Shown here piece after piece: positions 2,183 through 51,505 of a stretch of DNA of 64,000 nucleotides (position 1 is its first letter; every line of letters starts with the position of its first letter). Below the pieces are notes generated by a model. It was not told the DNA's origin. It did no database searches and saw only the letters and a program-made list of their open reading frames with translations. The DNA comes from Candidatus Norongarragalinales archaeon (lineage in GTDB: Archaea; Micrarchaeota; Micrarchaeia; Norongarragalinales; Norongarragalinaceae), in contig JAWABJ010000001.1 in the NCBI GenBank assembly GCA_038884755.1, positions 650,188-714,187 of the forward strand. Direction: 5' to 3'. A program made the translations under genes and the position numbers.

Positions 2183-2352
2183 GCAGGGGTAGCGAAGCCT
2201 GGTCAAGAACCTTTTTGCTCTCGCAAAAAGCTTCACCAAAAACGCGACAGGTTCAGGGCCTGTTCTCTCAGGAGTTCGAGGGTTCAAATTGAGCAAAGCG
2301 CTGGCTTTGCAACGTTTCACTCGCTTTGCTCGTGAAACTCCCTCCCCCTGCA
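2183..2352 (+). tRNA. tRNA-Leu(CAG) with two BHB introns (2206-2240 in D-loop; 2289-2338 in T-loop)
   Basis: Removing the introns gives GCAGGGGTAGCGAAGCCTGGTCAAACGCGACAGGTTCAGGGCCTGTTCTCTCAGGAGTTCGAGGGTTCAAATCCCTCCCCCTGCA. Central helices TGGT/ACCA and TTCA/TGAA have 3-nt bulges. Matches the intronless tRNA-Leu at 39469. Confidence 0.92.
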
Positions 2353-2416
2353 CTTAGACCTGCGGAAAGCATGGAGTATAAAATCAGCCCCGCTACTATA
2401 TCCTATAGAAGAGGTA

Positions 2417-2863
2417 ATGGGCTATATGGCAAGCAACACCAAAAAGAGCATGCAGAAGTCCAAGGGATTCTCGGACTTTGAGCGTGAAGCGATGAAAGAG
2501 CGCGCCCAAGAGCTGATGGCGGGCAAGGCCGACGGGGAAAGCGCCATGCTCACGAAGATCGCCGAGATGCCGGAACCGGATCGCACGATGGCCAAGCGGC
2601 TCCATGCTATCGTCAAAGCCAGCGCGCCAGCCCTCTCACCCAAAACCTGGTATGGAATGCCCGCTTACGCCAACAAAGACGGCAAGGTCGTCTGCTTCTT
2701 CCAAAGCGCAAAGAAGTTCAAAACGAGGTATGCTGCACTGGGTTTTAGCGACGCGGCAAATCTTGACGAAGGCGCCATGTGGCCGACCACCTTCGCGCTG
2801 AAGAAATTGACTGCCGCAGAAGAGGCAAAAATCGCCGCGCTCGTGAAGAAAGCAGTAAGCTGA
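2417..2863 (+). CDS. DUF1801 (YdhG-like) domain protein
   Basis: [15 protein letters not shown]...KVVCFFQ...[14 protein letters not shown] typical of DUF1801. Confidence 0.75.
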
Positions 2864-2934
2864 CAAAGTTTACCACGGGGCTCCGTGCAGATGGCTGCAG
2901 CGTTGCCCGGCTGGATCCCTTAAGCGTTCAGAGC

Positions 2935-3387
2935 TCAAATCCAACCAGCCTTTTTGTAGGCTCTAATCCCTTCCTTGAGCAAAACTCCCAAGTCCTCCAG
3001 CACCTGCGCGTCAAGCGAAGAAACGTTGAAGCAAGACTTTCCCTTCAAAAACTTTCTCGTCAACGGACTTTTCGTCTTGCTCAACAGCGCAGGGTGAGAG
3101 TATACAGGCATGGAGTAAAAGCCCACGAAAGTCTTTTGCAGTATTATTCCTGCAACGTAGGTCTTCTTCGGCTTTCTCACGGGTATAGAAACTTCCTTCC
3201 TACCGTAAAGGTGCAAACCGGGCGTTCCTCCCTTAGCTCGCGAACCTACAATCGTAGGACGAAGCTCCAAACCATTGGAGTTGTCTTTCAAAAGTTTTGC
3301 TAGAGACTTGAAAACAACATTCAAGTTTTCCAAGTTCTTCCAACCTGTTTGGAGAAAACAAAAAAAGCTAGAGGCTCTTCTTCTCAA
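2935..3387 (-). CDS. DUF1801-like protein (true start probably downstream of 3387)
   Basis: K.FVGFY.MPVY.HP.LL...KGKSCFN pattern. Confidence 0.55.
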   Translation of the reverse strand: MRRRASSFFCFLQTGWKNLENLNVVFKSLAKLLKDNSNGLELRPTIVGSRAKGGTPGLHLYGRKEVSIPVRKPKKTYVAGIILQKTFVGFYSMPVYSHPALLSKTKSPLTRKFLKGKSCFNVSSLDAQVLEDLGVLLKEGIRAYKKAGWI

Positions 3388-3799
3388 CTTTAGACTCGAA
3401 TTGCTCGTCGTTCAATTGCCCGTTCACCCAAGCTTCGACGTCAGCGTTCGCCACAGTCCACATTGTCGTAGCGTTCCCACCGGAATATTGCACTGCGATT
3501 ATTTTCTGCGAGCCTTGAGAGCTTGCAGAAGCAGCGCCTATCACGAACTTTTGCATGACGCCGGAATCAAAGCCTTCAGGCAATTCATACGCAACATACG
3601 CTTGCGCTTCGCTCACGTCGACAAAAGGCTCCTGAATACCGCCCCCCAACAACGTCGCATATAATTCAGTATTCCGAAGAGCCTGCTCTTCTTCAGGGTC
3701 GCTGTATTCGGCAACACCCTGCTGTGCGAAGAGGAGAAAATAAGCGGCGCCCGCGAGAGCGAGAACGACGACGATTGCGATTATTGCAAGCTTATTCAT
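3368..3799 (-). CDS. Membrane-anchored hypothetical protein
   Basis: N-terminal hydrophobic anchor, acidic body, coupled to upstream gene. Confidence 0.6.
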   Translation of the reverse strand: MNKLAIIAIVVVLALAGAAYFLLFAQQGVAEYSDPEEEQALRNTELYATLLGGGIQEPFVDVSEAQAYVAYELPEGFDSGVMQKFVIGAASASSQGSQKIIAVQYSGGNATTMWTVANADVEAWVNGQLNDEQFESKVEKKSL

Positions 3800-3802
3800 T
3801 TT

Positions 3803-4597
3803 TTATCTCCTGTTTCCCCATCGGTTTCTTGAATCCAGAGGGCCCAAGTCTATGGTGCGCGTGTTCATCAAATGCCGGGCGGTGTTCGAATGAGCGCCTA
3901 TCCCCATCATGTAAGCGAATTGCGCGGGCCCGTGAAGGTTGGGATTGAGCAGCGCAATGTCGGCAGGCCCTATCAAGCCCGGATTCAAACGCAGAATGTC
4001 GTTCGGGCCGATCAAGCCGGGGTTTATCTTGAAAATGTTCCACGGGCCTACGGCGTTAGGGCTTCTGCTGACAGTGTCGTAAATCAAGCCCGGGCTGCGA
4101 GCGAGATAACCGGGCGGTCGCGCGAAGTAAATGCCGAAATTACGGGCATCGTTCGAGTAAAACTCGTGGCGCGGAGAAGTATACCAAGTTCGTGCGGGAC
4201 ACGAAGCTTGCGCGCGGATTGCAGCTTGGATTGCAGCGTGTTTTGAAGCGTCAATCGCGTATATCGTAATCGCATTCTTGGACAAAAGGCATTTCAAATG
4301 TGAAGCCTTGTCTTCAGCGTTCGATAGCGAGCGCATTGCGTTATCCGTAGTCGTGATAGTGAAATCCGGTTCCCCCCCGCTGGCGCGCGAAAACTCGGCG
4401 CCATTCCAAGAGTAGAAGTCGTTTTGGCTTCCCACGCGGATTTGAACCAACGCCTTCGAGCCGAGCAACTGCCTCATTTCGGGAGTGCCGGCCGCTTGGT
4501 TGACGAGAGTCTGCAGTTCTTCCGCGCTCGCGGCGTAAGTAGAGGCGAATAATAATAGTAACGCTATTGCTCCCCACGCCTTCATAGTAAAAACCAA
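3803..4597 (-). CDS. Secreted hypothetical protein with C-terminal NPGLIGP repeats
   Basis: Signal-peptide-like N-terminus; three 13-aa-spaced NPxLxGP units. Confidence 0.6.
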   Translation of the reverse strand: MVFTMKAWGAIALLLLFASTYAASAEELQTLVNQAAGTPEMRQLLGSKALVQIRVGSQNDFYSWNGAEFSRASGGEPDFTITTTDNAMRSLSNAEDKASHLKCLLSKNAITIYAIDASKHAAIQAAIRAQASCPARTWYTSPRHEFYSNDARNFGIYFARPPGYLARSPGLIYDTVSRSPNAVGPWNIFKINPGLIGPNDILRLNPGLIGPADIALLNPNLHGPAQFAYMMGIGAHSNTARHLMNTRTIDLGPLDSRNRWGNRR

Positions 4598-4659
4598 CTC
4601 AAAGGTTGTTTAAAAAACGTTGCTTACGCTTTTTTCTCCCTGCAATCGTGTCAAGGAAG

Positions 4660-5958
4660 TCAAGGCGTCAGCCTGTTCCTGTCGCGCGGGAACAAAGCGC
4701 ACTCGCGAATATTACTGCGATTAGCAAGCTTCATGCAAAAACGCTCGGCGCCGATGCTCCAGCCTGCGTGCGGAACCGCGCCGTATCGAAACGCGTTGAC
4801 ATACCACTCGAAATCCGCCGGCTTGAGGTTTCGGGCTTTCAACTGCGCTACAAGCGTGTCGGGATCATGTATTCTCTGCGCGCCGCTCGCTATTTCCAAT
4901 CCTTTGAAAACCAAATCGTAAGATTTGCATACTTTCGGGTTTTCTTCCAAAGGCATTGCGTAGAACGCGCGGGAAAGCGTGGGCCACCGGATTGTGAAAA
5001 ACGCGTCAGCTCCGAGAATCTTCGGAAGCTGGGAATCGGCTTCTTTAGGAATGTCTTGGCCCCAGTCCACTTTGAACCCTTTCTTGTCGAGTTTTTCCAA
5101 AACCTCGTCGTAAGTGAAGCGCGGAACTTCCTTCGGAATTTCGTACTCCGCGTCCAAAAGCTTCAATTGCGCGGCGCAGTTTTTCTTGACGCTCTTCAAA
5201 ACGTGCAAAAAGAATTCTTCCAAGTAATCGAGCGCCTTGAAATCGTCTATGAAAGCGCATTCGATATCCATCTGAGTGCTTTCGTTCAAATGCACGGTCG
5301 TATTGTGCTTTTCAGCTCTGAAAACGGGAACAGTCATGAACACTCGCGTCATTCCGCCCAACACGGCCAGTTGTTTGTAAAGCTGCGGGCTTTGAGCCAG
5401 GAAAGCTTTCTTTTCAAAATATTTAACCTCAAAAACGTCCGTCCCGCCTTCACTCGCGCTTTCCAAAAGCGTCGGGGGGTTTATTTCCTGGAAGCCCAGT
5501 TCAATAGCTTTTTCGCGGAACGCCTTTTGCAATTCCGCGCGGATTTTGAAAGTAGCCTGGGTTTCCAAACGCCTCAAGTCCACGGAACGGTTGTCCAAAC
5601 GCACGTCAATGTCTGCAGGAACTTTGCCCGTCAATTCGAACGGGACTTGTTTTACAACTTTCCCCAGGATTTCGATTTTCGAAGGCGAGATTTCGCACCC
5701 GAAGGCGGAAACGCCCGGGTTTTTCTTTACCGTGCCTTCGACGAAAACGCTTGTTTCCTTCACCAGAGTTTCGGCTGCCTTGGCGAGTTCGGGTTGTTCG
5801 ATTTTTTTTATCGTCACCTGCGCCAAGCCGCCTTTCTCGCGAAGCACCAGGAACAAGAGTTTTCCCACGTCGCGCTTTTCGTGCACCCAACCCGCAACTC
5901 GCACGCGCTTTCCGTCGAGCTCGGGGGTTATTTGGGACAAGGAGTGAGTCAATTCCAT
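4660..5958 (-). CDS. aspS: Aspartyl-tRNA synthetase (archaeal type, possibly non-discriminating)
   Basis: OB-fold GWVHEKRD, LAQSPQLYKQ, FRAE, SGAQRIH, FPRD. Confidence 0.95.
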   Translation of the reverse strand: MELTHSLSQITPELDGKRVRVAGWVHEKRDVGKLLFLVLREKGGLAQVTIKKIEQPELAKAAETLVKETSVFVEGTVKKNPGVSAFGCEISPSKIEILGKVVKQVPFELTGKVPADIDVRLDNRSVDLRRLETQATFKIRAELQKAFREKAIELGFQEINPPTLLESASEGGTDVFEVKYFEKKAFLAQSPQLYKQLAVLGGMTRVFMTVPVFRAEKHNTTVHLNESTQMDIECAFIDDFKALDYLEEFFLHVLKSVKKNCAAQLKLLDAEYEIPKEVPRFTYDEVLEKLDKKGFKVDWGQDIPKEADSQLPKILGADAFFTIRWPTLSRAFYAMPLEENPKVCKSYDLVFKGLEIASGAQRIHDPDTLVAQLKARNLKPADFEWYVNAFRYGAVPHAGWSIGAERFCMKLANRSNIRECALFPRDRNRLTP

Positions 5959-6012
5959 GCGAAATCCACCAAATTACTTATAAGCGAGGTTGTTTTTTAA
6001 ATTGAGAACGTA

Positions 6013-6144
6013 TGGGGGATCTGAGATTCGAAGTCCGGAGCTTTTCTTTCTTTTCCAAGGTTTTCTTTCTTTCGCAAAGAAAGAAAAGCTTCTCAGGTCG
6101 CCAGCTCCCAAAGCTGGCAGGATACCAGGCTACCCCAATCCCCC
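6013..6144 (-). tRNA. tRNA-Pro(TGG) with 59-nt intron (6033-6091) at the T-stem/T-loop boundary
   Basis: Mature GGGGGATTGGGGTAGCCTGGTATCCTGCCAGCTTTGGGAGCTGGCGACCTGAG|TTCGAATCTCAGATCCCCCA; relaxed BHB. Confidence 0.9.
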
Positions 6145-6261
6145 GTGATTACAAAATTGCGGGCTGGAGGGAAATAAAACAAGCGGTTTCGCATACGTAT
6201 TTATTCGCAAAACCTTTTTTCCTTTAAAACGGTTTTTTGGAAAGAGGGGAAAAGACGCGGG

Positions 6262-6594
6262 ATGATAGGCGAATCGAGGCAGCCCAGGATAGTTTCCATA
6301 GGCAGGCAGCAGAAAAGCTTGATGGACTACCGCGAAGCTGGTGAGTACGTGCCCTACCGCAGGCAGACGCCGGCGTTTTACGCCGAGGCGAAACAGCTTT
6401 TCACCGACAACGAAATAATACTGCTCGCAATTTGGCTCGTTGTCTCTCCTTCCGCGGCGTTGGCGTACTTGATTTGGATAAAATACGAGCACTTGAGGCT
6501 TTTGGCACTGCTGCTGTTTGCGGTCGGAATAATCCACGCAGCCTACCAGTGGCAAGGCTTTTACGGGTTCGTTAGGAACCTCGCCGGTTTTTGA
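6262..6594 (+). CDS. Small membrane hypothetical protein
   Basis: ORF with hydrophobic segments between two tRNA genes. Confidence 0.5.
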   Translation: MIGESRQPRIVSIGRQQKSLMDYREAGEYVPYRRQTPAFYAEAKQLFTDNEIILLAIWLVVSPSAALAYLIWIKYEHLRLLALLLFAVGIIHAAYQWQGFYGFVRNLAGF

Positions 6595-6641
6595 AACGCG
6601 AGCGTGGGGTTTAAAGAATTCGCGACACAATTCTTTACGGT

Positions 6642-6972
6642 GGGCCTATAGCTCAGCCTGGACAGAGCAACTGCCTTCTAAGTCAGGCTTTTCTTTTCAC
6701 AAAAGAAAAGCCCGACGCGGTAAAAGAAAACTCGGTTTTTCTTTGGCGCGGCGCCAACCGCACCTTTCTTTTCGTGAAAAAGAAAGGGGCAAGGCAGCAG
6801 GAGGTCGGGGGTCCGAAAGGAGGAGAAACCAAGGTTTCTCCTCTCTACGCCTCTTCCTTTCGAGGAAAGAGAAAGGCGCGTTGCGCAAGAAAAAATAGTT
6901 TTTCTTTGGCGGCGCCCTCGCCTTTCTTTTTTCTAAAAAGAAAGGCAAGGCACGGAAATCCCCCTAGGCCCG
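6642..6972 (+). tRNA. tRNA-Arg(TCT) with two long introns (6681-6795 at 37/38; 6818-6958 at 59/60)
   Basis: Mature GGGCCTATAGCTCAGCCTGGACAGAGCAACTGCCTTCTA|AGCAGGAGGTCGGGGGTCCGAA|TCCCCCTAGGCCCG; second intron has helix TCCG/CGGA with 3-nt bulges. Confidence 0.88.
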
Positions 6973-7027
6973 CTTTTTTGCTGAAGAAAACGCAAGAGTT
7001 TTTATCGTTAGGCTGGTTAAGTATGCG

Positions 7028-7774
7028 ATGATAAAACTCAACGTTTTCCCCTTGGATTTGGAGTACGACGATTCCGAAAAAAAACTTTACTTCGAGGGAG
7101 TCGAACTTTCGCCGAACGTGCGCACTCTCGGCGAAATGTCGAGCGTGGTTTTAGACAAGGTTTTTTTCGAGAAAGCCGACAAGAAACGCATTCAGTACTA
7201 CATGTTCAGGGAGATTGCGAAGAAAGGCGACGTCGAGCTTTTCAAAACCCCGCCTTTGGAATTGTCTTACGACATTACGGTGATTCCCACGCTCGATTTG
7301 GGGAGGGAGTTCAACAAAACCCTGGGGCATTACCACCCGAAAAGCCCGTTTGGAGCGCGTTATGCCGAGATTTACGAAGTGCTCGAGGGTGAAGGGCATT
7401 ACTTGCTGCAACGCCTTGATGAAAAAACGGGAAACGTTGACGACGTCATGCTTGTGATAGCGAAGAAAGGCGACAAAGTGGTAGTGCCGAACGGCTATGG
7501 GCACATTTCCATAAACCCCAGTTCGAAAACACTGGTTTCCGCAAACATCACGGGCGTTTTCAAGAGCGAGTACGACCCTTACAGGCTCAAGGGCGGAGGG
7601 GCTTATTACGAATTGATAGACGATTCGCTTTCTCCCAACGAAAACTACGCGAACCTTCCGCTCATTAAAACGGTCGACGCCATGGACTTGCCTTTGAACC
7701 AGCAGTTCGACGGCGACAACATTTACGCGCAGTTCGTCGAAAACCCGACGAAGTTCGACTTCCTGAAAAAGTGA
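7028..7774 (+). CDS. Cupin-type glucose-6-phosphate isomerase
   Basis: KTLGHYH, YAEIYEVLEGEG, VPNGYGHISIN cupin-PGI motifs. Confidence 0.85.
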   Translation: MIKLNVFPLDLEYDDSEKKLYFEGVELSPNVRTLGEMSSVVLDKVFFEKADKKRIQYYMFREIAKKGDVELFKTPPLELSYDITVIPTLDLGREFNKTLGHYHPKSPFGARYAEIYEVLEGEGHYLLQRLDEKTGNVDDVMLVIAKKGDKVVVPNGYGHISINPSSKTLVSANITGVFKSEYDPYRLKGGGAYYELIDDSLSPNENYANLPLIKTVDAMDLPLNQQFDGDNIYAQFVENPTKFDFLKK

Positions 7775-7787
7775 TTGCCCGGCACAA

Positions 7788-14255: not shown

Positions 14256-14396
14256 TGCTCCGCCCGGGATTCGAACCCGGGTTGCTGGCTGTCCATACGG
14301 CCTTTCTTTTTTCGTCGAGGTTTTTTCTTTCCGCGAAAGAAAAAAAAAAGGTCGTTTGAAAGGCCAGCGTCCTGGACCGGACTAGACGAGCGGAGC
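14256..14396 (-). tRNA. tRNA-Glu(TTC) with 66-nt intron at 37/38 (14291-14356)
   Basis: Mature GCTCCGCTCGTCTAGTCCGGTCCAGGACGCTGGCCTTTCA|AGCCAGCAACCCGGGTTCGAATCCCGGGCGGAGCA. Confidence 0.92.
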
Positions 14397-20325: not shown

Positions 20326-20642
20326 GGGTGTCGGGTCGTAGTCCGCTTTTTGTTGCTCGCGACATCCGTCTAAGCGTCCGGCAAACGGGACTTGCACCCC
20401 TTATAGCCCAGCTCGTTTCACCCGACTTCCGCGCAACGTCACATTACGGTCATACTGCGCGCGGTTCGGTATCGTTTCTATTCCAGGCTCGCGCCCAAAA
20501 CGCGGGCACTTGCGTGCCTCCGTCCTTTGCTTTCTTTGATTGAACTTTCTTTCTCAAAGAAAGTTCAGGAGGGTGAGCGGAACTTCCTCAGCTGCCTCCC
20601 CTTATGCAGGAAAGGCTACCGACAGTCGCGCACCCAACACCC
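20326..20642 (-). ncRNA. rnpB: RNase P RNA with an A/U-rich insertion (~20523-20570)
   Basis: GAGGAAGTTCCGCTCACCC (CR-I), TAGAAACG, TGAAACG, GGGTGCAAG, AACAAAAAGCGGACTAC (CR-V); terminal P1 stem. Confidence 0.9.
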
Positions 20643-29896: not shown

Positions 29897-29943
29897 CTAG
29901 GCAGCAGTTTTTCCAAGGTTTTTTTCCTACGGAAAAAAAGCTT
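29897..29943 (-). other. 47-nt BHB intron in 23S (~E. coli 2754)
   Basis: Helix AGGC/GCCT with 3-nt bulges; removal restores GAAGGCAT|CTAAG. Confidence 0.85.
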
Positions 29944-30038: not shown

Positions 30039-30740
30039 TTATCGATCCTTCCCTTCAAGCGGCCAAACAATCCTAAAAGATGCAACCGAACTGTCTATGT
30101 CGCCTCTTCTAGAACGCTTAAGCAATTCAAAACGAAACACTTTATCCGGATGAGCCGAATCAAAACAATCGTAAAACTTCAACACTTGCTCGCTCCCGTG
30201 AACCATCAACGCAAACATTTGCGTTTGGCTTCCTTTCTTAACGTACGGCCCGCAAACGCGTCCGCAGCGAACTCCGAATTCGGAAACGATTTCCTTTATT
30301 TCGCCCAGAACACCCTGGTTGGCTTGAGCCAAATAAACCCGAATGTCCTTTTCAGGAATGTTCAAAGTCGTTTTCTCGAAGGAATTAACGCTTCCCTCCG
30401 CATCGAAAAAACCCCGGACGTAAGCCGCCTTAAGTTCTCCAGAGCCTTTTGAAATCCACGTTGGGGTTAGCCAAGTGGATTGGTCTCCGTTGAATTCAGC
30501 GAACTTCGAAAGTTCTTGAAAAACTTTCTTGGAAGTAATGCTCAAACACCAAACGCCATGCCGCTCGTCGAAGTAAAAGCTAGCGTTCTTGCCGAAATTC
30601 CTTTCGAGAATTCCGGCCAAAAGCTCGAGCCATCGTTTGCTCTTTTGGTAAAACCCGATTCGATAAATGCCTTGTTCAGGAATGCTCGTGATGTTTCCAT
30701 CACGCAAGGCTCCGATCAAGTAAGCGATTTCTTCATTCAC
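30039..30740 (-). CDS. Double-motif LAGLIDADG homing endonuclease (no stop inside the intron)
   Basis: AYLIGALRDG and YVRGFFDAEG motifs; probable GTG start at 30740. Confidence 0.85.
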   Translation of the reverse strand: MNEEIAYLIGALRDGNITSIPEQGIYRIGFYQKSKRWLELLAGILERNFGKNASFYFDERHGVWCLSITSKKVFQELSKFAEFNGDQSTWLTPTWISKGSGELKAAYVRGFFDAEGSVNSFEKTTLNIPEKDIRVYLAQANQGVLGEIKEIVSEFGVRCGRVCGPYVKKGSQTQMFALMVHGSEQVLKFYDCFDSAHPDKVFRFELLKRSRRGDIDSSVASFRIVWPLEGKDR

Positions 30741-30836
30741 GATTAATCCGAAATCTTCCTCTGCTTTTAAATCTTGAGAGAGTGGCTTTCCAGTGCTTCC
30801 AGTGAATTGCCTATGATTGTGCGTTCTAAAAGAGGT
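30097..30836 (-). mobile_element. 740-nt BHB intron in 23S (~E. coli 2597) encoding a LAGLIDADG endonuclease
   Basis: Helix GTCG/CGAC with 3-nt bulges, long terminal stem; removal restores AACGTCGCG|AGACAGTTCGG. Confidence 0.9.
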
Positions 30837-30956: not shown

Positions 30957-31158
30957 TTGTCCTTTGCAGAACAATCTTTCCCGCCCCCTACGCGTTGAGC
31001 GTCAGAGTTCAAACCGGTCACTAACATCTTTTGCGAGAGATTACCTAAACCTAACCAGCATGGATGCCAGTGTCGGTTTAAACGAAGACTGATCGCTCAA
31101 AACACGGGGTTGAAAAAGAAAGTTCCATTCGCCTTTCAAATGAAAGAAAGGGGAAAAA
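30957..31158 (-). other. 202-nt ORF-less BHB intron in 23S helix 89 (~E. coli 2477)
   Basis: Helix GTTC/GGAC with 3-nt bulges; removal restores GAGAGTTCAT|ATCGAC. Confidence 0.85.
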
Positions 31159-31274: not shown

Positions 31275-31321
31275 AAAACAGATTTTTCTTTACTTGATTT
31301 TTCTTTCGTAAAGAAAAATCA
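31275..31321 (-). other. 47-nt BHB intron in 23S (~E. coli 2360 region)
   Basis: Helix AACA/TGTT with AAT and TTA bulges. Confidence 0.8.
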
Positions 31322-31749: not shown

Positions 31750-32474
31750 CAACTTTTCGTATGCATTTTGCACTGAAAAGCTGGACTATATCTTCACCGT
31801 CTTAGGGTGTTCGGCGTATAGTCTCTGAGGATCCTGTCTTTGCGTCCAACTCTTGCATTATTTCATCCAAAGTGCTCTTGCGTTGTTTTCCTTCCAAATT
31901 CATTCGGAAGGCCAAGCGCACGAGTTTTTTGAACGAGTCAAGGTCGGAATGCTCTTTTCTTTCTAACGCTTCAACAATTTCCTTGAACAGAAGAAAGTCT
32001 TTCTCTTTCGAGACAAGCGGATACTTGTCGAAAAAAGGAATTACTTTCTCCGCCAACTGCCTTCGGTTGTCTACAACGAACTGCATTAATTCCGGTTGAC
32101 CGTGTTTTTCCACGACCCTTCCGCAAGAAAGCCTGCTTCGGAATAAATCCAAAACCGCTTGTCCTTGCTTGTGTTGGGTTACGTGAAAAACCGGGTCTAA
32201 AACCAACCCGAATTTTGCAGTGTCTTCTTGTTTTAAAGACACGTTGAAACAACCTTCAGCGTCGGCGAATCCGCTCAAGAAAAAATCGGCGTTTCTTCCT
32301 TTCGTGAGTTTACTCAACCCAGCCATAGGCAACCACCTTTTTGGTTCTTTTAAAATTACAGTTTCCTGCTGATAGCATTCAACGTTTCAAGCTCTTTTCC
32401 TTACTCAGGGTCTTGAAACTCCCGCGTTCCAGCATACAGCCGAATTTAGCGACTCCCTTTAACTTGATTGCTCA
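31750..32474 (-). mobile_element. Group I intron at 23S position 1923 carrying a LAGLIDADG ORF
   Basis: P1 exon GACTCT pairs with GGAGTC (U.G at splice site); core elements TGCTGGAA, ATCAGCAGG, TCAGAGACTA, AAGATATAGTCC; terminal G before CTTAAGGTAG. Confidence 0.92.
31802..32332 (-). CDS. Single-motif LAGLIDADG homing endonuclease
   Basis: FLSGFADAEGCFNVS...F.VTQ...VIPFFDKYPL; C-terminal SSETIR overlaps the intron core. Confidence 0.92.
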   Translation of the reverse strand: MPMAGLSKLTKGRNADFFLSGFADAEGCFNVSLKQEDTAKFGLVLDPVFHVTQHKQGQAVLDLFRSRLSCGRVVEKHGQPELMQFVVDNRRQLAEKVIPFFDKYPLVSKEKDFLLFKEIVEALERKEHSDLDSFKKLVRLAFRMNLEGKQRKSTLDEIMQELDAKTGSSETIRRTP

Positions 32475-32766: not shown

Positions 32767-32830
32767 TTCAGTAAAAAATTTCTTTGGGTTTTCTTTACTG
32801 AATTTTTCTTTTCCCAAAAGAAAAATTCTT
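32767..32830 (-). other. 64-nt BHB intron in 23S (~E. coli 1617)
   Basis: Helix CAGT/ACTG with 3-nt bulges; removal restores GAACCAGTAC|AGGTGG. Confidence 0.85.
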
Positions 32831-34690: not shown

Positions 34691-34745
34691 GCTTTTCTTT
34701 CTTTACTTAATTTTTTCTTTCTTTCGCAAAAAGAAAGAAAGGTTA
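34691..34745 (-). repeat. Free-standing Y-R-R mirror (triplex-type) element just 3' of tRNA-Ala
   Basis: CCTTTCTTTCTTTTT-GCG-AAAGAAAGAAAAAA-TTAAGT-AAAGAAAGAAAAGC. Confidence 0.75.
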
Positions 34746-34879: not shown

Positions 34880-34922
34880 GCAAAACGCTTTTTTGATCAA
34901 ACTTTTTTCGAAAAAAAGTTTG
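34880..34922 (-). repeat. Y-R-R mirror element in the 16S-tRNA-Ala spacer
   Basis: CAAACTTTTTTT-CG-AAAAAAGTTTG-ATC-AAAAAAGCG. Confidence 0.65.
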
Positions 34923-35039: not shown

Positions 35040-35255
35040 CATGTAGTTCCACATGTCGCCATGCGGCATGGACTATATCATCATCTCAATTTCTTGAGCG
35101 TCTGCGTGTAGTCTCTGAGGGGTCAATCATTTTCATGACGACTTCCCTGCTGATAGACCCCACCTGAACCGTTGCCGGTTCAGGATACACGGGTTGTTCC
35201 AGCATACAGCAGATTTTGTCTGCATCCTCGCGGATGCAGGTCGCAACATAAGTTT
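35040..35255 (-). mobile_element. 216-nt ORF-less group I intron at 16S position 1506
   Basis: P1 GTCGT/GCGAC; TGCTGGAA, ATCAGCAGG, TCAGAGACTAC, GATATAGTCC; terminal G before AACAAGG. Confidence 0.92.
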
Positions 35256-35796: not shown

Positions 35797-36483
<687 letters not shown>

Positions 36484-36713
36484 TTCCTTTAAGTTTCAAT
36501 CTTGCGATCGTACTCCCCAAGCGGCAGACTAAACGTTTTCACTACGGCACTGCAGCAACGCGAAGTCGCTGCAACGCCAAGTCTGCATCATTTACTGCAC
36601 AGGACTACTCGGGTATCTAATCCGATTCGCTACCCTGGCCTTCGTTCCTCACCGTCAGACGTGTTTTGTCCAAGCGCTTTCGCCACCGATGGTCCTCTAA
36701 GGATTACAGGATT

Positions 36714-36764
36714 GTAAGCACAGTTTTTCTTTACTCAATTTTTCTTTCGTAAAGAAAAATTGTT
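36714..36764 (-). other. 51-nt BHB intron in the 16S 690 loop (~E. coli 694)
   Basis: Helix GAGT/GCTT with 3-nt bulges; removal restores GGAGTAA|AATCCTG. Confidence 0.82.
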
Positions 36765-44699: not shown

Positions 44700-45788
44700 T
44701 TAATGGCTCTTGAAAACGAAATCCATGTCCCCGATTCTTTCCAGCGCAAAAGGAACTCCGGAAAGCTTTGCAAACGCGAAAGCGAAATCCAAGCCAACGT
44801 TGGGCAAAGAAAACAACTTCGAGTGCAAAAGCCAATGCATTCGGAAAGTCTTTTCGTACGCTTTTCTCCAGCGTTGTTCGTAGTCCAAAACGCCGTTCTC
44901 GAAATAATTTTCAATCGCACTCGCCGCTTGTTGCCCGCACAACCCGCCGAAAACAATCCCTCCCCCAGTCGTGGATTTTACTTGTCCCGCCGCGTCGCCC
45001 ACCAAAATGACAGAATCTTTTTGCGTTTTCGAACGCGGGAATAGGGGAATCGAGTAGTTGAACTCCCGCCCTTTCTTTTTCTCTTCCCCTAAACCCATTT
45101 TTTTCAAAAGCTTTCTTTTTCCCGAGTTCAATGCCGAAGGGTTCGTCGTAGCGAGCCCCACGCGCGCCGTGCTTTCGTTAACCGGGACAGACCACGCGAA
45201 AAAGTTGGGCGCGATCGACTGGTCGAGAAAAACGTGAACTTTGTCCGGCGTCTCTTGCGTGAATGAATATTCGGCTTCCCAAGCGGAAGCGAAGCGTCTG
45301 AAAGGTGGAAGGCCGCTTTCGCGCGCCACGAACGAACCCAAGCCGTCAGCACCCACGACCACCCGCGAGTGAAACTCGCCTGACGGCGTTGTTATGCTCA
45401 ATCCGCCGTTTTGCGAGAGTTTTCTCGCGCCGGCGTTCAAAAACAACTCCGCGCCTTTGTTTATAGCCTCGCCCACGCACTTTTCGTCGAACGCCTGGCG
45501 GTCGAGGACAAACGCGACCGGCGTTTTGGTTTGCACTGAAAACGAGACGCGCGGCGAATGCACTATCGCGCCGTGGATTTCGTTCAAAACTGTTTTCTTG
45601 AAGTCCACGCCAATGCGTTCAAGCCCGCTGGCGGAAACGAGCGCGGTGCACTTGTTGAACTTGCCCGGGCGCGCGTGTTCTTCCAAAAGCGCGACGCTAG
45701 CGCCCTTGCTTGCTATTGCTCTTGCGGTCATTCCACCGACGCAAGACGCGCCCACTACTACGCAATCGAATTTTTTCGTTCCAACCAC
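44700..45788 (-). CDS. Geranylgeranyl reductase-family FAD oxidoreductase
   Basis: VVVGA, DRQAFD, GADG, LVGDAAGQVKSTTGGGI. Confidence 0.85.
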   Translation of the reverse strand: MVGTKKFDCVVVGASCVGGMTARAIASKGASVALLEEHARPGKFNKCTALVSASGLERIGVDFKKTVLNEIHGAIVHSPRVSFSVQTKTPVAFVLDRQAFDEKCVGEAINKGAELFLNAGARKLSQNGGLSITTPSGEFHSRVVVGADGLGSFVARESGLPPFRRFASAWEAEYSFTQETPDKVHVFLDQSIAPNFFAWSVPVNESTARVGLATTNPSALNSGKRKLLKKMGLGEEKKKGREFNYSIPLFPRSKTQKDSVILVGDAAGQVKSTTGGGIVFGGLCGQQAASAIENYFENGVLDYEQRWRKAYEKTFRMHWLLHSKLFSLPNVGLDFAFAFAKLSGVPFALERIGDMDFVFKSH

Positions 45789-45800
45789 TCTTCCTGCAAT

Positions 45801-46514
45801 TTAGTTTGAAGCGCGGAGTTTTAAGAGCGTTGCGAACATTTTCAGCGCGGTTTTCAGCCCGTTGGCGTAGGTTATGGTCCCGCCTTCGCGCATGTGCCAC
45901 TCCACCGGAATTTCCTCAACTCGCAAGCCTAGTTTTTTCGCCTGGAAAAGCATGTCTACGTCCCAAACGAAATTCGACGTCCTGATTCTCGGCAAGAGCT
46001 TTTCCAAAGCGCTTTTCCTGAATGCCTTGAAGCCGCATTGCGTATCCGCGTAAGGAAGCCCGAACAAGAGTCTTTCCAACATATTGAAAGCTTTGGCTGC
46101 AAGCAGCCTGCCTGCCGGAATCTCGGTTTTAGAAGACGGCATATAGCGGGAGGCGATTGCAATGTCGCTTTTCTCCAACGCCTTCAGCAATTTCGGCATT
46201 TCCTTTGCGGGAACGGAATAATCGGCATCCATAAAGAAAACCATGTCCGCCTTCGCATGCGCCAGACCCTCGTTCAGCGCGCCGCCTTTTCCCAGCCTGC
46301 GTTTGAAAACCAAAAGCTTGATTTTTCCCGCCGCATCGAGCGAATTGGCGCGCGCGAACTTTTTCGCTACAGACGGCGTCGAGTCCGTGCCGTCGAAAAC
46401 TATCAACACTTCGAAATCCCACTTTGCTTGCTTCAAAAAACCTATCAAGCCTTCTAGGGTTTGGAGAATGCGTTTTTCCTCGTTGTAAGCCGGAATCACG
46501 ATTGAAATCTTCAA
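45801..46514 (-). CDS. GT2 glycosyltransferase (dolichyl-phosphate glucosyltransferase-like)
   Basis: SIVIPAYNEE, GKGGAL, MDAD, DTQCGFKAF. Confidence 0.9.
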   Translation of the reverse strand: MKISIVIPAYNEEKRILQTLEGLIGFLKQAKWDFEVLIVFDGTDSTPSVAKKFARANSLDAAGKIKLLVFKRRLGKGGALNEGLAHAKADMVFFMDADYSVPAKEMPKLLKALEKSDIAIASRYMPSSKTEIPAGRLLAAKAFNMLERLLFGLPYADTQCGFKAFRKSALEKLLPRIRTSNFVWDVDMLFQAKKLGLRVEEIPVEWHMREGGTITYANGLKTALKMFATLLKLRASN

Positions 46515-46524
46515 GCCAACACCA

Positions 46525-47916
46525 TCACAACGCCTGCTCTAGTGGCGGGAGTTTCGCGAATGAAGGCATCGCGCTTTCGAACAAGGCGTAAACGCGCTCC
46601 AAATCCCCTCGCGTTTTGCCTTCGAACCTGGCGCTCAACAGAGGTTCGGTAAGCGAAGCGCGCACCAGCCCCCACGCCTTTTCATCTTGATACTTTACGC
46701 CATCCGAAGTCAAAAGCCTTAACTTTCTCGCTTTCAAAGCCTTCTCTGCCTGTGCGACGGCCTCGAACTTGCGTGCACAAGGAATGCGCAGCTCGCGCGT
46801 CGCGTGATAGCGTTTTACGGTCGCCACAAGTTGCGATGCGCGTTTTCCGCTTTTGCGCAGGATTTCGCAGAATTTTGCGCTCGCAAAAATACCATCGTCA
46901 AAGCCGTTGTTGTCGGCAAAACAAACGTGCCCGGTAGTTTCACACGCGAAAACCGCGCCCTTGCGCATCGACTCGCGGACGGCAATGCGCCCCGCGTTCG
47001 TCTCAACCGCCTTTCCGCCGAGTTTTTCTATTTCCTCCCGCACCACCATCGAGCAGCGCAGTTCAAACCCCACCGAGCCACCCTTTTTTTTCGGAAGAAC
47101 ATCGCGGATGAACAGCACGTTTGCTTCGTCGCTTTTGATTACGCCTCCTCGCTCGTCTACGAAAACCGCCCGGTCGCCGTCCCCGTCGAACGCCACGCCC
47201 AAATCGGCGTTCTCCGCAACAACGCGTTTTTGCAAATCGCGAACGTTCTCTGGCTTCGACGGGTCTGGCAAGTGGTTTGGAAAACGCCCGTCAGGCTCGC
47301 AGTACAAGGGAATTACTTTTGCACCGAGTTTTCGCAGCAAGCGCACTCCGACTTCGCCGACGACACCGTTCCCACCGTCAACGACTATCTTCAAACCGCC
47401 AAGCTCGGAATTTTTCGACGCTGCAAAACGCAAGTATTCGTCCAAAACGTTTTTTCCGTGCACTTTGCCGTACGCAAGCCTCGGCTTTTCCGCGAACTTT
47501 TTCGACTCAAAAATTTTTTTTACCGCGAGCAACTGCCTCGAGCTCAACGGCCAGATGCCGGAAAGCATTTTCACGCCGTTGTACTGCGGGGGGTTGTGGG
47601 AAGCGGTTATAACTGCAGCCCCGTCGGTCTTCAGCGCGAAAGCTGCAAAGTAAGCGACCGGCGAAGGCACGACGCCCACTTCGAAAACAGTGCAGCCGGT
47701 GGAACGCAACCCCCCAACGAACGCCTTGAACAGCGAAGGCGACGAAAGCCGGTTGTCCCGCCCGCACGCTAATCGCGGATTTCGGGTTTTGCCCGCGGCG
47801 GTTTCCTTGAGCATGAAAGTACCGAACGCCTTTCCCAAGTCCAAAGCCCGTTTTTCGTCGAAGTTTTCGCCGTAAACGCCGCGCACGTCGTAACCGCCGA
47901 AAATCCCTTCCACCAC
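46525..47916 (-). CDS. Phosphomannomutase/phosphoglucomutase
   Basis: YDVRG, TASHNP..YNG.K, DGDGDR, VRASLTEP. Confidence 0.92.
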   Translation of the reverse strand: MVEGIFGGYDVRGVYGENFDEKRALDLGKAFGTFMLKETAAGKTRNPRLACGRDNRLSSPSLFKAFVGGLRSTGCTVFEVGVVPSPVAYFAAFALKTDGAAVITASHNPPQYNGVKMLSGIWPLSSRQLLAVKKIFESKKFAEKPRLAYGKVHGKNVLDEYLRFAASKNSELGGLKIVVDGGNGVVGEVGVRLLRKLGAKVIPLYCEPDGRFPNHLPDPSKPENVRDLQKRVVAENADLGVAFDGDGDRAVFVDERGGVIKSDEANVLFIRDVLPKKKGGSVGFELRCSMVVREEIEKLGGKAVETNAGRIAVRESMRKGAVFACETTGHVCFADNNGFDDGIFASAKFCEILRKSGKRASQLVATVKRYHATRELRIPCARKFEAVAQAEKALKARKLRLLTSDGVKYQDEKAWGLVRASLTEPLLSARFEGKTRGDLERVYALFESAMPSFAKLPPLEQAL

Positions 47917-48033
47917 AACACCTGCCGTAAGACTAAACGCGTCCTTTCTTAAAAACGCGTAAAACTGTTTCACCCGCAACGATTAAAAAGGTAATACTTC
48001 GTAATACTTTCCTTCGTTTTTGGCGGGATTGTA

Positions 48034-48738
48034 ATGCTTACCAGAATCAGTCTTACCATGGAAAAAGAGCTGTTGGGGCGCATAGACGCGCTGGTCGACG
48101 GCGAAACCATGAAAAACCGCTCGCAAACGGTTTCCCTGCTCTTGCGCAACGCCTTGAAGGGCATGAGCGTGGGCAAGGCGCTCGTGCTTGCCGGAAAAAA
48201 CAATTTCCTTTTAGATAAAATCCTCGGTTGGCTTAAGAAAAACGGGATTACCGAAGTGGTTATAGCAGTCGGGAAGGACGAGAACTTGAGAAGGAAGCTC
48301 GAAAGCTGGGAGAAGGGAATGAACAAGGAATATTCTTTCGACGAGAATAAAGGAACTGCGAACGCAATCAAGAAAGCAAAACACTTTTTGAAAGAACCGT
48401 TTTTGCTTTGCTATTCCGACGTGTTTTGCGAAGACTTGGTTTTGAAAGACTTGCTTTCGTTCCACAACATACAGAAAGCCAAGTGCACGCTTGTTTTGAC
48501 GTGGAGCAAGCAGCCGAGCAAGTACGGCGTCGCGAAAATGCTGGGCGCGAAAATAATCGACTTCGAGGAAAAGCCCTCCAGCGCCGAAGGGTTTTTGATA
48601 AACGCCGGCGTCGCAGTGTGCAATCCAGAAGTTTTCGACTCGCTCGAAGAGCCGAGCTTCGAGAAAAACGCCTTGCCCGCGATGGCCGCGCAGGGAAGCC
48701 TTTCTGGATACGTGTATTACGGAAAATGGGTTCACTGA
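48034..48738 (+). CDS. Ribbon-helix-helix domain fused to a degenerate sugar-phosphate nucleotidyltransferase domain
   Basis: RISLTMEKELL..ID.LVD.....NRSQ.V..LL (RHH), then GTANAI, YSD, YGVA, FEEKP, INAG; lacks the GxGTR/PK loop. Confidence 0.75.
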   Translation: MLTRISLTMEKELLGRIDALVDGETMKNRSQTVSLLLRNALKGMSVGKALVLAGKNNFLLDKILGWLKKNGITEVVIAVGKDENLRRKLESWEKGMNKEYSFDENKGTANAIKKAKHFLKEPFLLCYSDVFCEDLVLKDLLSFHNIQKAKCTLVLTWSKQPSKYGVAKMLGAKIIDFEEKPSSAEGFLINAGVAVCNPEVFDSLEEPSFEKNALPAMAAQGSLSGYVYYGKWVH

Positions 48739-48764
48739 AAAAGCAGTAACGGGGTGGGAAAAAA

Positions 48765-49769
48765 ATGCCTTTGGTGCCGATGAAGCAGATTTTGGACGAA
48801 GCCGCGAAGGGAAAGTACGGTGTTCCGCACTTCAACGTCAACAACATGGAACAGGCGCAGGCGATAATGCGGGCTGCGGATGAAGTTTCTTCTCCGGTAA
48901 TAATGGCAGCCTCGCGTGGCGCGTTGAAATACACCGACTTGATTTTCATAAAACACCTGATGCTAGCATGCATAGAGAAATACCCGAAATTGCCCGTGTC
49001 AATGCACTTGGACCACGGCAACAACCTCGAATCCGTGAAAACCGCGATTTCGCTGGGCTTCACTTCCGTGATGATTGACGGCTCGCTCAAGGAAGACGCG
49101 AAAACCCCGACTTCGTTTGAAGAAAACGTGAGGGTAACGCGCGAGTGCGTGGACTACGCGCACAAGTTCGGCGTCACGGTAGAAGGAGAGTTGGGAACGC
49201 TCGGCGGGATAGAAGATGGCGTGGGTTCGGGGCAGGCGCGCTTGACCGACCCGGGACAGGTTAAAGAATTTTTGGAGCGCACGGGGGTTGACGCGTTGGC
49301 TGTCGCAATAGGCACTTCACACGGCGCTTACAAATTCAAGATCAAGCCCGACCCGGACAAGAATCTGCTCGCGATGGACGTCATCCGAAAAATCCACTCG
49401 CTATGCCCAGATTTGCACATGGTAATGCACGGTTCTTCATCAGTCCCACAAGAGCTTTTGGACGTGATCAACAAATACGGAGGAAAAATACCGCCCACGT
49501 ACGGCGTTCCATTGTGGGCGATAAAGGAAGGCATTGCAGCGGGAGTGCGAAAGATAAACGTCGACACCGACTTGCGCCTGGCTTCTACCGGCGCCATAAG
49601 AAAATTCATGTGGGAAAATCCCGAGAAGTTTGACCCGCGCGAGTACTTGGGGCCGGCGAGGGAAGCCATGCAAGGGGTGGTGAGGGAAAGGTTTATCGCC
49701 TTTGGTTCTGCAGGACACGCGTTTGACTACTCTCCCGCTTCGCTGGAAGACATGAAAAAAATTTACTAA
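48765..49769 (+). CDS. fba: Fructose-bisphosphate aldolase class II
   Basis: HLDHG, SVMIDGS, VEGELG, GTSHGAYK, MHGSS, KINVDTD. Confidence 0.95.
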   Translation: MPLVPMKQILDEAAKGKYGVPHFNVNNMEQAQAIMRAADEVSSPVIMAASRGALKYTDLIFIKHLMLACIEKYPKLPVSMHLDHGNNLESVKTAISLGFTSVMIDGSLKEDAKTPTSFEENVRVTRECVDYAHKFGVTVEGELGTLGGIEDGVGSGQARLTDPGQVKEFLERTGVDALAVAIGTSHGAYKFKIKPDPDKNLLAMDVIRKIHSLCPDLHMVMHGSSSVPQELLDVINKYGGKIPPTYGVPLWAIKEGIAAGVRKINVDTDLRLASTGAIRKFMWENPEKFDPREYLGPAREAMQGVVRERFIAFGSAGHAFDYSPASLEDMKKIY

Positions 49770-49785
49770 GCGCAGGTGTTGAAAA

Positions 49786-50754
49786 ATGGTTGACAGGAAC
49801 TTGTCTTTGGATTTCGTGCGCGTTACCGAAAGCGCTGCAATTGCCAGTGCGCGGTGGACGGGCTTGGGCGACAACCACGCTGCCGACAAGGCGGCTACCG
49901 AACACATGCGCGCGCGCTTGAACAACATAGATTTCAAAGGGAGGATAGTGATAGGTGAAGGCGAGAGGGATGAAGCGCCAATGCTTTACATTGGCGAAAC
50001 AGTTGGGAACGGCAACGGCGGGGAGTTTGACTTGGCAGTCGACCCGTTGGAAGGAACAAACTTAGTTGCCAAAGGCTGGAGCAACGCTTCGAGCGTGCTG
50101 GCGGCTGGAAAGAAAGGGGGTTTGCTGCACGCGCCCGACACGTACATGGACAAAATAGCTTGCGGGCCGGAAGCCGCGGGAAAAGTAGATTTGGATTACG
50201 CGCCTGAAGAAAACATCCGCATAGTCGCCGAATCCCTGGGAAAAAAGAAGAACGAAGTGACGGTCGCGATGATGGACCGCGACAGGCATTTGGATTTGAT
50301 GAAGAAAGTGCGCGGCGCTGGCGCGAAAATACGGCTTATTACCGACGGCGACCTTTCGGCCGCGCTTGCGACTGCAATGCCGGAGCACGGGATTGACTTG
50401 CTTTTGGGCATAGGCGGCGCGCCCGAAGGCGTGATTTCCGCCGCTGGAATGAAATGCCTTGGCGGGTGGTTTCAAGGGCGCTTGAAGTACAGGAACGAAG
50501 AGGAGAGAAAGCGCGGAGGGAAAATGGACATCGACGAAAGCAAGAAATTCTCGATGGAAGAACTGGCCAAGGGGGAAGTGCTTTTCGCAGCTACAGGCGT
50601 GACCGAAGGCTACATGCTCAAGGGCGTGCGTTTCGACGCAAAACACATTTACACTCACTCGCTGGTAATGCGTTCGAAAAGCAAGACTGTTAGGTTCATT
50701 GAAGCGCTGCACGACAGCGAAGTGCAAAGGGGCTTCGAAGGTGAAAAGAAATGA
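49786..50754 (+). CDS. glpX: Fructose-1,6-bisphosphatase class II
   Basis: IGEGERDEAPMLYIGE, VDPLEGT, GGAPEGV, AATGVT. Confidence 0.95.
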   Translation: MVDRNLSLDFVRVTESAAIASARWTGLGDNHAADKAATEHMRARLNNIDFKGRIVIGEGERDEAPMLYIGETVGNGNGGEFDLAVDPLEGTNLVAKGWSNASSVLAAGKKGGLLHAPDTYMDKIACGPEAAGKVDLDYAPEENIRIVAESLGKKKNEVTVAMMDRDRHLDLMKKVRGAGAKIRLITDGDLSAALATAMPEHGIDLLLGIGGAPEGVISAAGMKCLGGWFQGRLKYRNEEERKRGGKMDIDESKKFSMEELAKGEVLFAATGVTEGYMLKGVRFDAKHIYTHSLVMRSKSKTVRFIEALHDSEVQRGFEGEKK

Positions 50755-51461
50755 AAGCGGTGATAGTTTGCGGCGGGAAAGGAACTAGGCTTCGGCCGTA
50801 TACGCATACGATTCCCAAGCCCATGCTGATGCTCGGGCGCAAGCCCATCCTCGAATACACCATAAACCATTTCAAAAGCGAAGGGTTTACTGAAATAATC
50901 CTGGCAGTGGGGCACTTGCGGGAGCAGATAATGAACTACTTCGGCGACGGAAAGAAATTCGGGGTGAAAATCGAGTATAGCGTGGAAGAGGAAGAGCTTG
51001 GGGACGCAGGCAGCATAAAAAACGCCGAGAAGCTTTTGAAAGGCGAAAGCCACTTCATAGTGGAAATGGGAGACCACCTCACCAACCTGGACTACAGGCG
51101 AATCGTGGATTTCCACGCGAAGCAAAAAGCTTTCGCCACCGTGGGGCTGAAGCGCATGGGAACGCCATTCCAATTCGGAACCGCGAAAGTGAACCAGGCG
51201 CTCGACGTGGTGGAGTTCCAAGAAAAACCCATAATCGAAAACCTGGTTAACGCGGCGATTTACGTTTTCGACAAGCGCGCGCTGGAATACTTCCCGCGGA
51301 AAGGCGGAATATCGTTCGACGTCATCCCGAAACTGGTGAAGGAACGCAAGCTCAAAGGGTTCATTTTCGACGACTATTGGATCGACGTCGGCGGAATAAA
51401 GGAGTATGAAGAGCTCAACCAGTCCGTGAGCGTCATGGATTTGATAAGCCACGCCAAGTAA
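50751..51461 (+). CDS. Sugar-phosphate nucleotidyltransferase
   Basis: GGKGTRLRPYT..PKPM, FQEKP, WIDVG. Confidence 0.92.
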   Translation: MKAVIVCGGKGTRLRPYTHTIPKPMLMLGRKPILEYTINHFKSEGFTEIILAVGHLREQIMNYFGDGKKFGVKIEYSVEEEELGDAGSIKNAEKLLKGESHFIVEMGDHLTNLDYRRIVDFHAKQKAFATVGLKRMGTPFQFGTAKVNQALDVVEFQEKPIIENLVNAAIYVFDKRALEYFPRKGGISFDVIPKLVKERKLKGFIFDDYWIDVGGIKEYEELNQSVSVMDLISHAK

Positions 51462-51505
51462 TTTTGTTTTTTAGGAAAAAAGAAAAATTAAGTAAAGAAA
51501 AAACT
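51461..51505 (+). repeat. Y-R-R mirror element at the operon end
   Basis: TTTTGTTTTT-TAGG-AAAAAAGAAAAA-TTAAGT-AAAGAAAAAA; same TTAAGT spacer as the copy at 34691. Confidence 0.6.

Follow-up and report, generated by a model that had tools for sequence, protein, structure and literature searches.

The stretch of DNA analysed here, called the window, covers 64,000 nucleotides of a Candidatus Norongarragalinales archaeon (Micrarchaeota; assembly GCA_038884755.1, contig JAWABJ010000001.1, positions 650,188 to 714,187 of the forward strand) and includes one rRNA operon and the RNase P RNA gene. Dispersed through it, and through the rest of the 927-kb genome (51% G+C, 93% complete), are copies of a repeat of 35-50 bases, here called the module, in which a pyrimidine tract (Y) is followed by a loop, a complementary purine tract (R1), a spacer and a second purine tract (R2). 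Many copies lie in small introns of tRNA and rRNA genes that are bounded by bulge-helix-bulge (BHB) motifs. To judge from sequence comparison, the module is probably a small non-coding repeat of RNA exon edges, shaped by a three-stranded fold that would form in single-stranded DNA, and tolerated through its removal from the RNA. The family reads as an A/T-rich variant of the BoxC/PIT triplex repeats that has colonised BHB introns, with the triplex predicted.

A strict scan, requiring a perfect Y:R stem of at least 7 bp, a loop of 3-7 nt and a second A-rich purine tract within 14 nt, finds 45 copies in the genome and 11 in the window. The genome holds 58 Y-loop-R hairpins; a third tract lies on the R side in 45 of them and on the other side in 2. 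Sixteen local block-shuffles yield a mean of 3-6 hairpins and at most one copy in each of two R-side classes (at most 2 in total, against 45), and a control pattern with the order reversed is rare (6 matches in the genome, versus 43). Assigned to location classes by manual reading of the scan lists, 39 of the 45 copies lie within or adjoining stable-RNA genes, 30 of them inside. Introns of tRNA genes hold 25 (22 sense and 3 antisense), and the remainder comprises four rRNA inserts, one copy in rnpB, six tRNA trailers (all sense), two tRNA leaders (both antisense), one rRNA spacer and six copies elsewhere, two of which fall within long open reading frames (ORFs) and are probably chance matches. 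The loci listed in an earlier reading of the window made from the sequence alone are all present, those at 2206 and 51467 under relaxed criteria only, and the recurring spacers that it named (CCTTGG and TTAAGT twice each, TCAAGT, TTGAGT and TTCAGT) occur as described.

The tracts are A/T-rich with one to three G, and the anatomy extends beyond them. Bases 5' of Y (U) pair with the spacer (U'), giving the order U-Y, loop (mostly 3-4 nt), R1-U', turn, R2. This extension of the stem has at least four of six pairs in 21 of 41 own copies (null 2.8) and is often preceded by a C.C mismatch. The distance from the marker G of R1 to the marker G of R2 is 14 nt in 23 of the 41 and 20-22 nt in a further 12; it is also 14 nt in 54 of 123 bacterial copies. 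In this G-G register a Watson-Crick pair closes the turn in 32 of the 41 own copies, including the class with the direct-looking spacer TTCAGT. Rfam holds no family that reaches its gathering score on the window modules or in 20 module loci from GTDB, and scans of nine non-tRNA module contexts return nothing above cut-off.

The relation between the two purine tracts was measured by comparing their longest mirror match with their longest direct match. Mirror exceeds direct in 20 of the 45 strict copies and direct exceeds mirror in six, with 19 ties; among 86 modules in 185 loci of relatives, the mirror is better in 52, the direct repeat in 11, and 23 tie. Many copies are uninformative because the core AAAGAAA is its own mirror. 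The earlier claim that R2 mirrors R1 rather than repeating it is borne out on balance for the genome as a whole. It fails for the 11 window copies (mirror better in two, direct in four, five ties): the tRNA-Glu copy is a true mirror (12 versus 7 direct) and the tRNA-Pro copy ties at 12 and 12, while the direct repeat is the better match in the 16S, 23S-31275, 23S-29897 and 34691 copies. The A-runs facing the spacer are of equal length in 26 of 50 own copies of the relaxed set (permutation mean 12, maximum 21) and in 47 of 81 copies at other loci of the phylum (permutation mean 19, maximum 30), and in a congener's tRNA-Pro intron at the same site all three tracts are shortened together. The design is conserved while its letters change, as a three-stranded fold would require. 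A hairpin and a third tract in mirror register on one strand, the arrangement that defines intrastrand triplex motifs (PIT/ITxF, classes II-III), is what these copies have. Shuffles, BHB borders and symmetry counts together bear out a dispersed, non-random family with triplex-type symmetry inside BHB introns.

The module-bearing introns are ordinary members of the BHB class: they are precise inserts lacking in orthologues, they have a 4-bp central helix with two 3-nt bulges, and without them the RNA is canonical. The four rRNA inserts (51, 64, 47 and 47 nt) are precise, missing from most relatives among the alignments listed, and have all four central pairs at their aligned borders. Thirty tRNA genes carry 38 introns, whose positions were set from the anticodon. 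At least three of four central pairs are present in 23 of the 24 module-bearing tRNA introns (random 16%), a figure inflated by the choice of borders partly on BHB score. After splicing, 29 of the 30 tRNAs are called with the expected anticodon; Ser(GGA) is miscalled. ViennaRNA probabilities for the BHB helix are low and were set aside, as the 3-nt bulges are penalised. For BHB splicing the host encodes an RtcB ligase and an EndA of a type able to cut non-canonical sites, namely a three-unit splicing endonuclease of the epsilon2 type (403-aa frame; E 2.7e-125 against ARMAN-2 EndA, PDB 4fz2). The copy in rnpB, which had been counted among the introns, does not belong there: it lies in a variable-length stem without BHB borders, the corresponding stem differs in length in three relatives (of 19 loci, 6 were parsed), and the module probably stays in the RNA. 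As a separate observation, the RNase P RNA of this genus (window 20327-20641; L388, L390) has a very short segment past the first conserved box, 52-82 nt as against about 160 nt in G012 and G406.

RNA data from a close relative are suggestive of splicing. Metatranscriptome X15 agrees with the congener G002 at 33 of 35 listed positions. One of its contigs, X15-2 (845 nt, with one mismatch and one gap against G002, the gap common to both DNA runs), skips exactly the 44-nt module insert of G002. DNA run X2 reads through this insert with no mismatch; the runs belong to different studies. When runs are mapped on the window's own rRNA, joints skip the 16S and 23S inserts. The joints at the 16S insert were rejected as evidence of splicing, as the RNA matches G002, whose DNA lacks that insert.

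Copies are placed by a simple rule. The 22 sense copies in introns begin 3-11 nt past the 5' splice site and the three antisense copies begin 12-16 nt from the 3' splice site; on either strand the hairpin end is turned toward the exon and the tail away from it, with sense copies in trailers and antisense copies in leaders. Among relatives, 37 of 39 clearly placed copies obey the same rule; a further two lie within a tRNA call, and 45 are unplaceable. Exon-facing placement on either strand suggests the end of a DNA-level element. The order Y-R-R on the transcribed strand, as first proposed, stands for single-module introns and not for the second tRNA-Arg intron, which has no sense copy, nor for the antisense leader copies.

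The module turns over rapidly between relatives at orthologous RNA loci. Among 13 contigs of relatives (three from one bin, G003), the 16S site is empty in ten, holds other modules in two and a module-free intron in one. The 23S site at 32767 holds a different module subfamily in G002. Of 14 Glu(TTC) genes, five have no anticodon intron, six have one with a module and three have one without. The module is a cargo of introns, exchanged at fixed sites; it is not the body that defines them, as the sequence-only reading had it, since 14 of the 38 tRNA introns have no strict copy and orthologous sites hold module-free introns. There are also signs of copying between paralogues, with gene conversion and intron transposition as the likely routes. 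One trailer start is common to three tRNA-Ala genes and another to two tRNA-Arg genes, and the Pro, Leu(TAA) and Ser(GGA) introns, each at a different position, start with nearly the same module. Bin G003 also calls for a remark of its own: its three divergent rRNA contigs (L061, L081 and L082), which match the window at 79-88%, suggest mis-binning.

The family is neither confined to this genome nor to introns, contrary to the earlier picture of an element spreading through one genome's introns. Within the phylum, 108 of 401 genomes have the pattern (19 of 20 in its own family, against 1 of 94 and 2 of 83 in two further families). Micrarchaeota record L156 carries a module almost identical to those described here, which, like the epsilon2-type EndA, suggests Micrarchaeota as the host's phylum. 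A stricter pattern matches some 21,000 stretches in GTDB, as estimated from 1/64 of the collection; the 123 matches listed come from Proteobacteria, Bacteroidota and Bacillota, plus 14 archaeal records. Where the loop of a bacterial copy is long, the five bases after R2 pair with it in 41 of 76 (null mean 5.3, maximum 12; 28 distinct loops), typically as a 5-bp helix with three free nucleotides (35 of 45). In the Paraburkholderia genome G407, most of the 147 matches form convergent pairs, with 420-440 bp between partners, and the pairs lie within longer inverted repeats. There, as in miniature inverted-repeat transposable elements (MITEs), a non-coding core is flanked by terminal inverted repeats; among archaeal introns only a few have paired modules. 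No target-site duplication is evident by eye in five paired G407 elements, and no partner ORF was recognised among 13 module loci listed, whose ORFs were not scanned against families. In Aeromonas (L141) the A/T-rich module adjoins a G-rich BoxC-like triplex copy, and in Xanthomonas (L455, L460 and L470) it adjoins repetitive extragenic palindromic (REP) sequences, which we take to be GTAG-type. About 660 viral stretches match as well; of 135 parsed hits, the first 45 are mostly in A/T-rich contigs and largely chance-like, and no viral vector is proposed.

The bacterial copies bear on the question of which strand folds. Along the Y-Y-R strand their layout is that of an H-type pseudoknot, with the pyrimidine tract as its first loop and running parallel to the purine strand of the second stem. 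If the Y-R-R strand folded instead, R2 would presumably become a loop crossing the minor groove, which would leave the exact mirror unexplained. Pyrimidine-motif triples occupy the corresponding loop in telomerase RNA and several riboswitches (PMC7583470). Among internal third-strand mismatches on the Y-R-R strand, A.C (read as G.T on the other strand) exceeds G.T by 31 to 9 when copies are counted. Purine-motif triplexes cannot form in RNA according to Holder et al. (2015, PMC4666352), and a review finds the evidence mixed (PMC7583470). The purine-motif triplex on the transcribed RNA that was first envisaged is therefore doubtful. Because of the pseudoknot geometry, the mismatch bias and this literature, we lean toward a pyrimidine triplex on the Y-Y-R strand, which would be the DNA template strand for most intron copies.

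In the favoured account, a triple helix of the pyrimidine type (T.A-T, C+.G-C), as in telomerase-type pseudoknots, would form on the Y-Y-R strand in single-stranded DNA and keep the module in shape. The splicing endonuclease and the end-trimming nucleases would remove it from essential RNAs, so that it survives. Recombination or intron transposition would carry copies from one paralogous tRNA gene or intron site to another. A Y:R2 pairing in the RNA would then have arisen secondarily, as an adaptation by which roughly half of the introns close their stem. A bolder extension, which we hold only tentatively, is that the module represents the recognition end of unrecognised, pan-prokaryotic small mobile elements, with ends that take the form of a telomerase-like pyrimidine triple helix or pseudoknot when the nucleic acid is single-stranded and that are delivered to RNA-processing sites in Micrarchaeota.

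Several observations weigh against this account. At tRNA genes, sense copies outnumber antisense copies by 28 to 5, which is unexpected for a purely DNA-level element, and the mirror is not the better match among the window's own copies. The mismatch bias falls to 14:8 when distinct contexts are counted, leaving the strand assignment weak. Archaeal copies have short loops and mostly lack the pseudoknot helix (at least three pairs in 3 of 66 relaxed own copies), and secondary-structure models, which have no score for triples, predict ordinary hairpins of Y with R2 or with R1. A single contig, of another strain and from another study, makes up the RNA evidence, and an intron-less allele would also fit it; the neighbouring 47-nt insert is skipped in X15 and X17 and also in DNA run X7, and so is polymorphic in DNA. 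Finally, the genome, at 93% completeness, has no match to Y1_Tnp (PF01797) at E up to 1, none to RVT_1 and none to DUF559. With no Y1 HUH transposase found, a non-autonomous element of the REP/RAYT or IS200/IS605 type was rejected. A DUF559 nuclease was likewise rejected as the mobiliser: it matches in 43 of 401 genomes of the phylum, the module-rich G006, G007, G010, G094 and G207 not among them, and only 1 of 30 DUF559 loci has a module, about 1.5 kb distant.

Other explanations of the module share some of this evidence. A purine-motif triplex (A.A-T, G.G-C) on the Y-R-R strand, as an A/T-rich analogue of E. coli TMECO, is rather unlikely, even though the tract order is class II, as it is in TMECO, a repeat that does form a triplex in vitro (PMC4666352). 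The Watson-Crick pair that closes the turn in the G-G register of 32 of 41 own copies would suit it, as would the G-rich copy beside the A-rich module in Aeromonas. It is burdened by the groove-crossing position that R2 would presumably take in the bacterial pseudoknot, and by a mismatch bias in favour of the opposite strand. A-to-T swaps are allowed in the purine motif, and just one of 12 internal third-strand mismatches is of this kind. Both strands might nevertheless fold together in an extruded cruciform, in which case this alternative and the favoured pyrimidine triplex overlap. We consider it unlikely that the module is instead an RNA folding switch, in which Y has R1 and R2 as alternative partners and the stem on the BHB side is complete with Y:R2 alone, so that folding would tune the splicing of tRNA and rRNA. 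Y:R2 is in register with the intron stem and often continues it, sense copies begin within a few nucleotides (3-11) of the 5' splice site, and R2 is the better direct repeat in six copies. When the 21 single-module introns are folded with their flanks, though, the distal pairing Y:R2 wins in 12 and the proximal Y:R1 in 9, and the same design recurs in trailers, leaders, intergenic DNA and bacteria, where no splicing takes place, as well as in antisense copies and in rnpB. The switch offered in the sequence-only reading is not general on these counts. Watson-Crick switching also needs no mirror covariation, and the epsilon2 enzyme cuts relaxed motifs without one helix (PMC3239211).

It is improbable, too, that the modules are RNA-borne mobile introns, excised and re-ligated at EndA, RNase P and RNase Z sites and copied back into DNA. 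Such a route would place copies near processing sites, and they lie 3-18 nt away; it fits the near-identical module at different positions of the Pro, Leu(TAA) and Ser(GGA) introns, the RtcB ligase, and the intron transposition proposed for Thermoproteales (PMC4033280, citing Fujishima 2010). It is hard to square with a genome without an RVT_1 match, with the need of a DNA step for antisense copies, both those of 3' splice sites and those of leaders, and with bacterial copies that are intergenic. That the modules are a by-product of slippage and fold-back copying in A/T runs, without any selected structure, is highly improbable and largely refuted. Tandem extra R units in the Leu(TAA) intron and in a relative's Pro intron, and the many chance-like matches in A/T-rich viral contigs, are what slippage would leave; the fixed G-G spacing, the mirror covariation, the one-sided polarity and a covarying pseudoknot in bacterial loci of 60-70% G+C are not.

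Among the closest known systems are the bacterial triplex repeats. Intrastrand triplexes that occur naturally in bacteria were recognised 25 years ago and have neither a known function nor evidence of their formation in vivo (PMC4666352). Like BoxC/PIT/TMECO (Holder et al. 2015, PMC4666352; Hoyne and Maher 2000 cited there), the module has the order Y-loop-R-loop-R of class II (class III on the other strand) and is short, dispersed, non-coding and without a linked transposase, at loci that vary between relatives. Copies of TMECO are G/C-rich and nearly identical, lie only between genes and show no strand bias (PMC4666352), whereas those of the module are A/T-rich and covary, possess a stem extension and a register of 14 or 20-22 nt, and occur within tRNA and rRNA introns at a fixed polarity relative to the exons, with a pseudoknot added in bacteria. 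BoxC/TMECO proper was ruled out on the A/T-rich tracts, the 30 of 45 copies inside RNA genes and the exon polarity. The database of Holder et al. counts A/T-rich class II motifs in bulk, and the accessible parts of that paper do not mention tRNA (PMC4666352).

The introns themselves resemble those of ARMAN/Micrarchaeota and Thermoproteales (PMC3239211, PMC4033280) in their BHB ends, in positions 37/38, 53/54 and 59/60, in occurring several to a tRNA, in the epsilon2 EndA, and in the presence of similar introns in different tRNAs. As far as the accessible parts of those papers go, their introns are short (13- and 25-nt substrates) and have no triplex-type body in common, while most tRNA introns here carry one, which is found outside introns as well. 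The layout of the bacterial Y-Y-R strand is that of the H-type pseudoknot triple helices of telomerase RNA, SAM-II and preQ1-II (PMC7583470). Those are single-copy functional RNAs; the module is multicopy, occurs in either orientation, and has no pseudoknot stem in most of its archaeal copies. With REP/BIME and MITE elements it shares small palindromic repeats and convergent pairs, which make elements of 420-480 bp. It differs from REP/BIME in having no GTAG/CGTC tag, no Y1 transposase match in the genome, and a third, mirror tract. Other small repeats inserted in RNA genes are SDR in cyanobacteria and RPE in Rickettsia. No description of the module family was found in the literature, with subscription journals mostly outside the scope of the search; supplementary intron tables may hold such sequences unremarked.

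Within the window, module copies begin with tRNA-Leu(CAG), whose D-loop intron (2206..2240, plus strand) has a weak all-A variant and a 4/4 central helix; the copy is absent from the strict list and was read by eye. Excision of this intron and of a second one at 2289-2338 leaves an 86-nt tRNA. The T-arm intron of tRNA-Pro(TGG) (6033..6091, minus strand) contains a module at 6041-6087 with a 12-bp Y:R1 stem, a CCTTGG turn and a 12-nt mirror tract. The 3' helix strand of this intron is one base off for its own tRNA and would suit CCGG T-arms, a possible trace of transfer from another tRNA. On the plus strand, tRNA-Arg(TCT) has an anticodon-loop intron (6681..6795) with a sense module at 6688-6730 and an imperfect antisense module at its 3' end, and a T-loop intron (6818..6958) with a hairpin of a second family, family B, at its 5' end (from 6822) and an antisense module (6899-6945) at its 3' end. 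The anticodon-loop intron of tRNA-Glu(TTC) (14291..14356, minus strand; module 14301-14345) occupies a site that is empty or filled differently in relatives. The rnpB module is at 20530..20563 (minus strand) in the gene at 20327-20641. ARAGORN, at default settings with introns, finds four of the seven window tRNAs; relaxed settings gave noise only and were not used.

The rRNA operon lies on the minus strand. Its 23S gene has two 47-nt inserts with BHB ends, at 29897..29943 (module 29908-29939) and at 31275..31321 (module 31283-31318), the latter varying in presence among DNA runs near-identical to G002, and a 64-nt insert with BHB ends at 32767..32830 (module 32789-32825), the site at which G002 has the different 44-nt module skipped in the RNA contig. 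A trailer copy follows immediately 3' of tRNA-Ala(TGC) (34692..34740), an all-A variant lies in the spacer between 16S and tRNA-Ala (34888..34918), and the 51-nt 16S insert with BHB ends is at 36714..36764 (module 36724-36759). The operon also has three long introns with LAGLIDADG ORFs (30097-30836, 31750-32474 and 35828-36486), an ORF-less 202-nt 23S insert with a 4/4 central helix (30957-31158), and a 216-nt insert at the 3' end of 16S (35040-35255) that matches the group I intron family of Rfam (RF00028) and lacks a good BHB. A last, free copy (51467..51503, plus strand; relaxed criteria only) lies directly past the stop codon of the ORF at 50751-51461, in a convergent intergenic gap.

Family B has the opposite order, R-loop-Y-Y, with a hairpin of the type GGAGAAAC-N4-GTTTCTCC followed by a CCTCTTCC-like tract, and occurs in tRNA introns and trailers. 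A third tract of this kind accompanies 9 of 15 R-loop-Y hairpins, and the nine loci are window 6822-6841 (plus strand), G000 C1:43871, 116550, 212771, 300833, 494220 and 638823, C2:66629 and C3:28488. Individual introns show further variation. The spacer-R2 unit is amplified in tandem in the tRNA-Leu(TAA) intron (G000 C1:567955-568081) and much more extensively in a relative's tRNA-Pro(CGG) intron (L435), and the tRNA-Thr(CGT) intron (G000 C1:381152-381293) has several AAAAGAAAA tracts shown as loops of small G/C stems. A tRNA-Ile with anticodon UAU (G000 C1:13053-13218, minus strand) has two introns; such genes have been reported for ARMAN lineages. In L428 (G009) the 3' end of tRNA-Pro(TGG) recurs downstream, with Y:R hairpins in between, an arrangement that resembles an integration scar. 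Three consecutive modules at G000 C1:173535-173698 (minus strand) surround a short stretch with ATGATGA, which we take to be C-box-like; the locus has no Rfam match and is possibly a small RNA.

The module-bearing introns explain why standard tools miss most tRNAs of these genomes, and the family provides a concrete handle on the gain and exchange of archaeal tRNA and rRNA introns. Three-way covariation across thousands of diverged copies would be evolutionary evidence for selection on a three-stranded fold. If the tentative extension to mobile elements is correct, an element with triplex ends would drive the gain and turnover of BHB introns in the tRNA and rRNA genes of Micrarchaeota.

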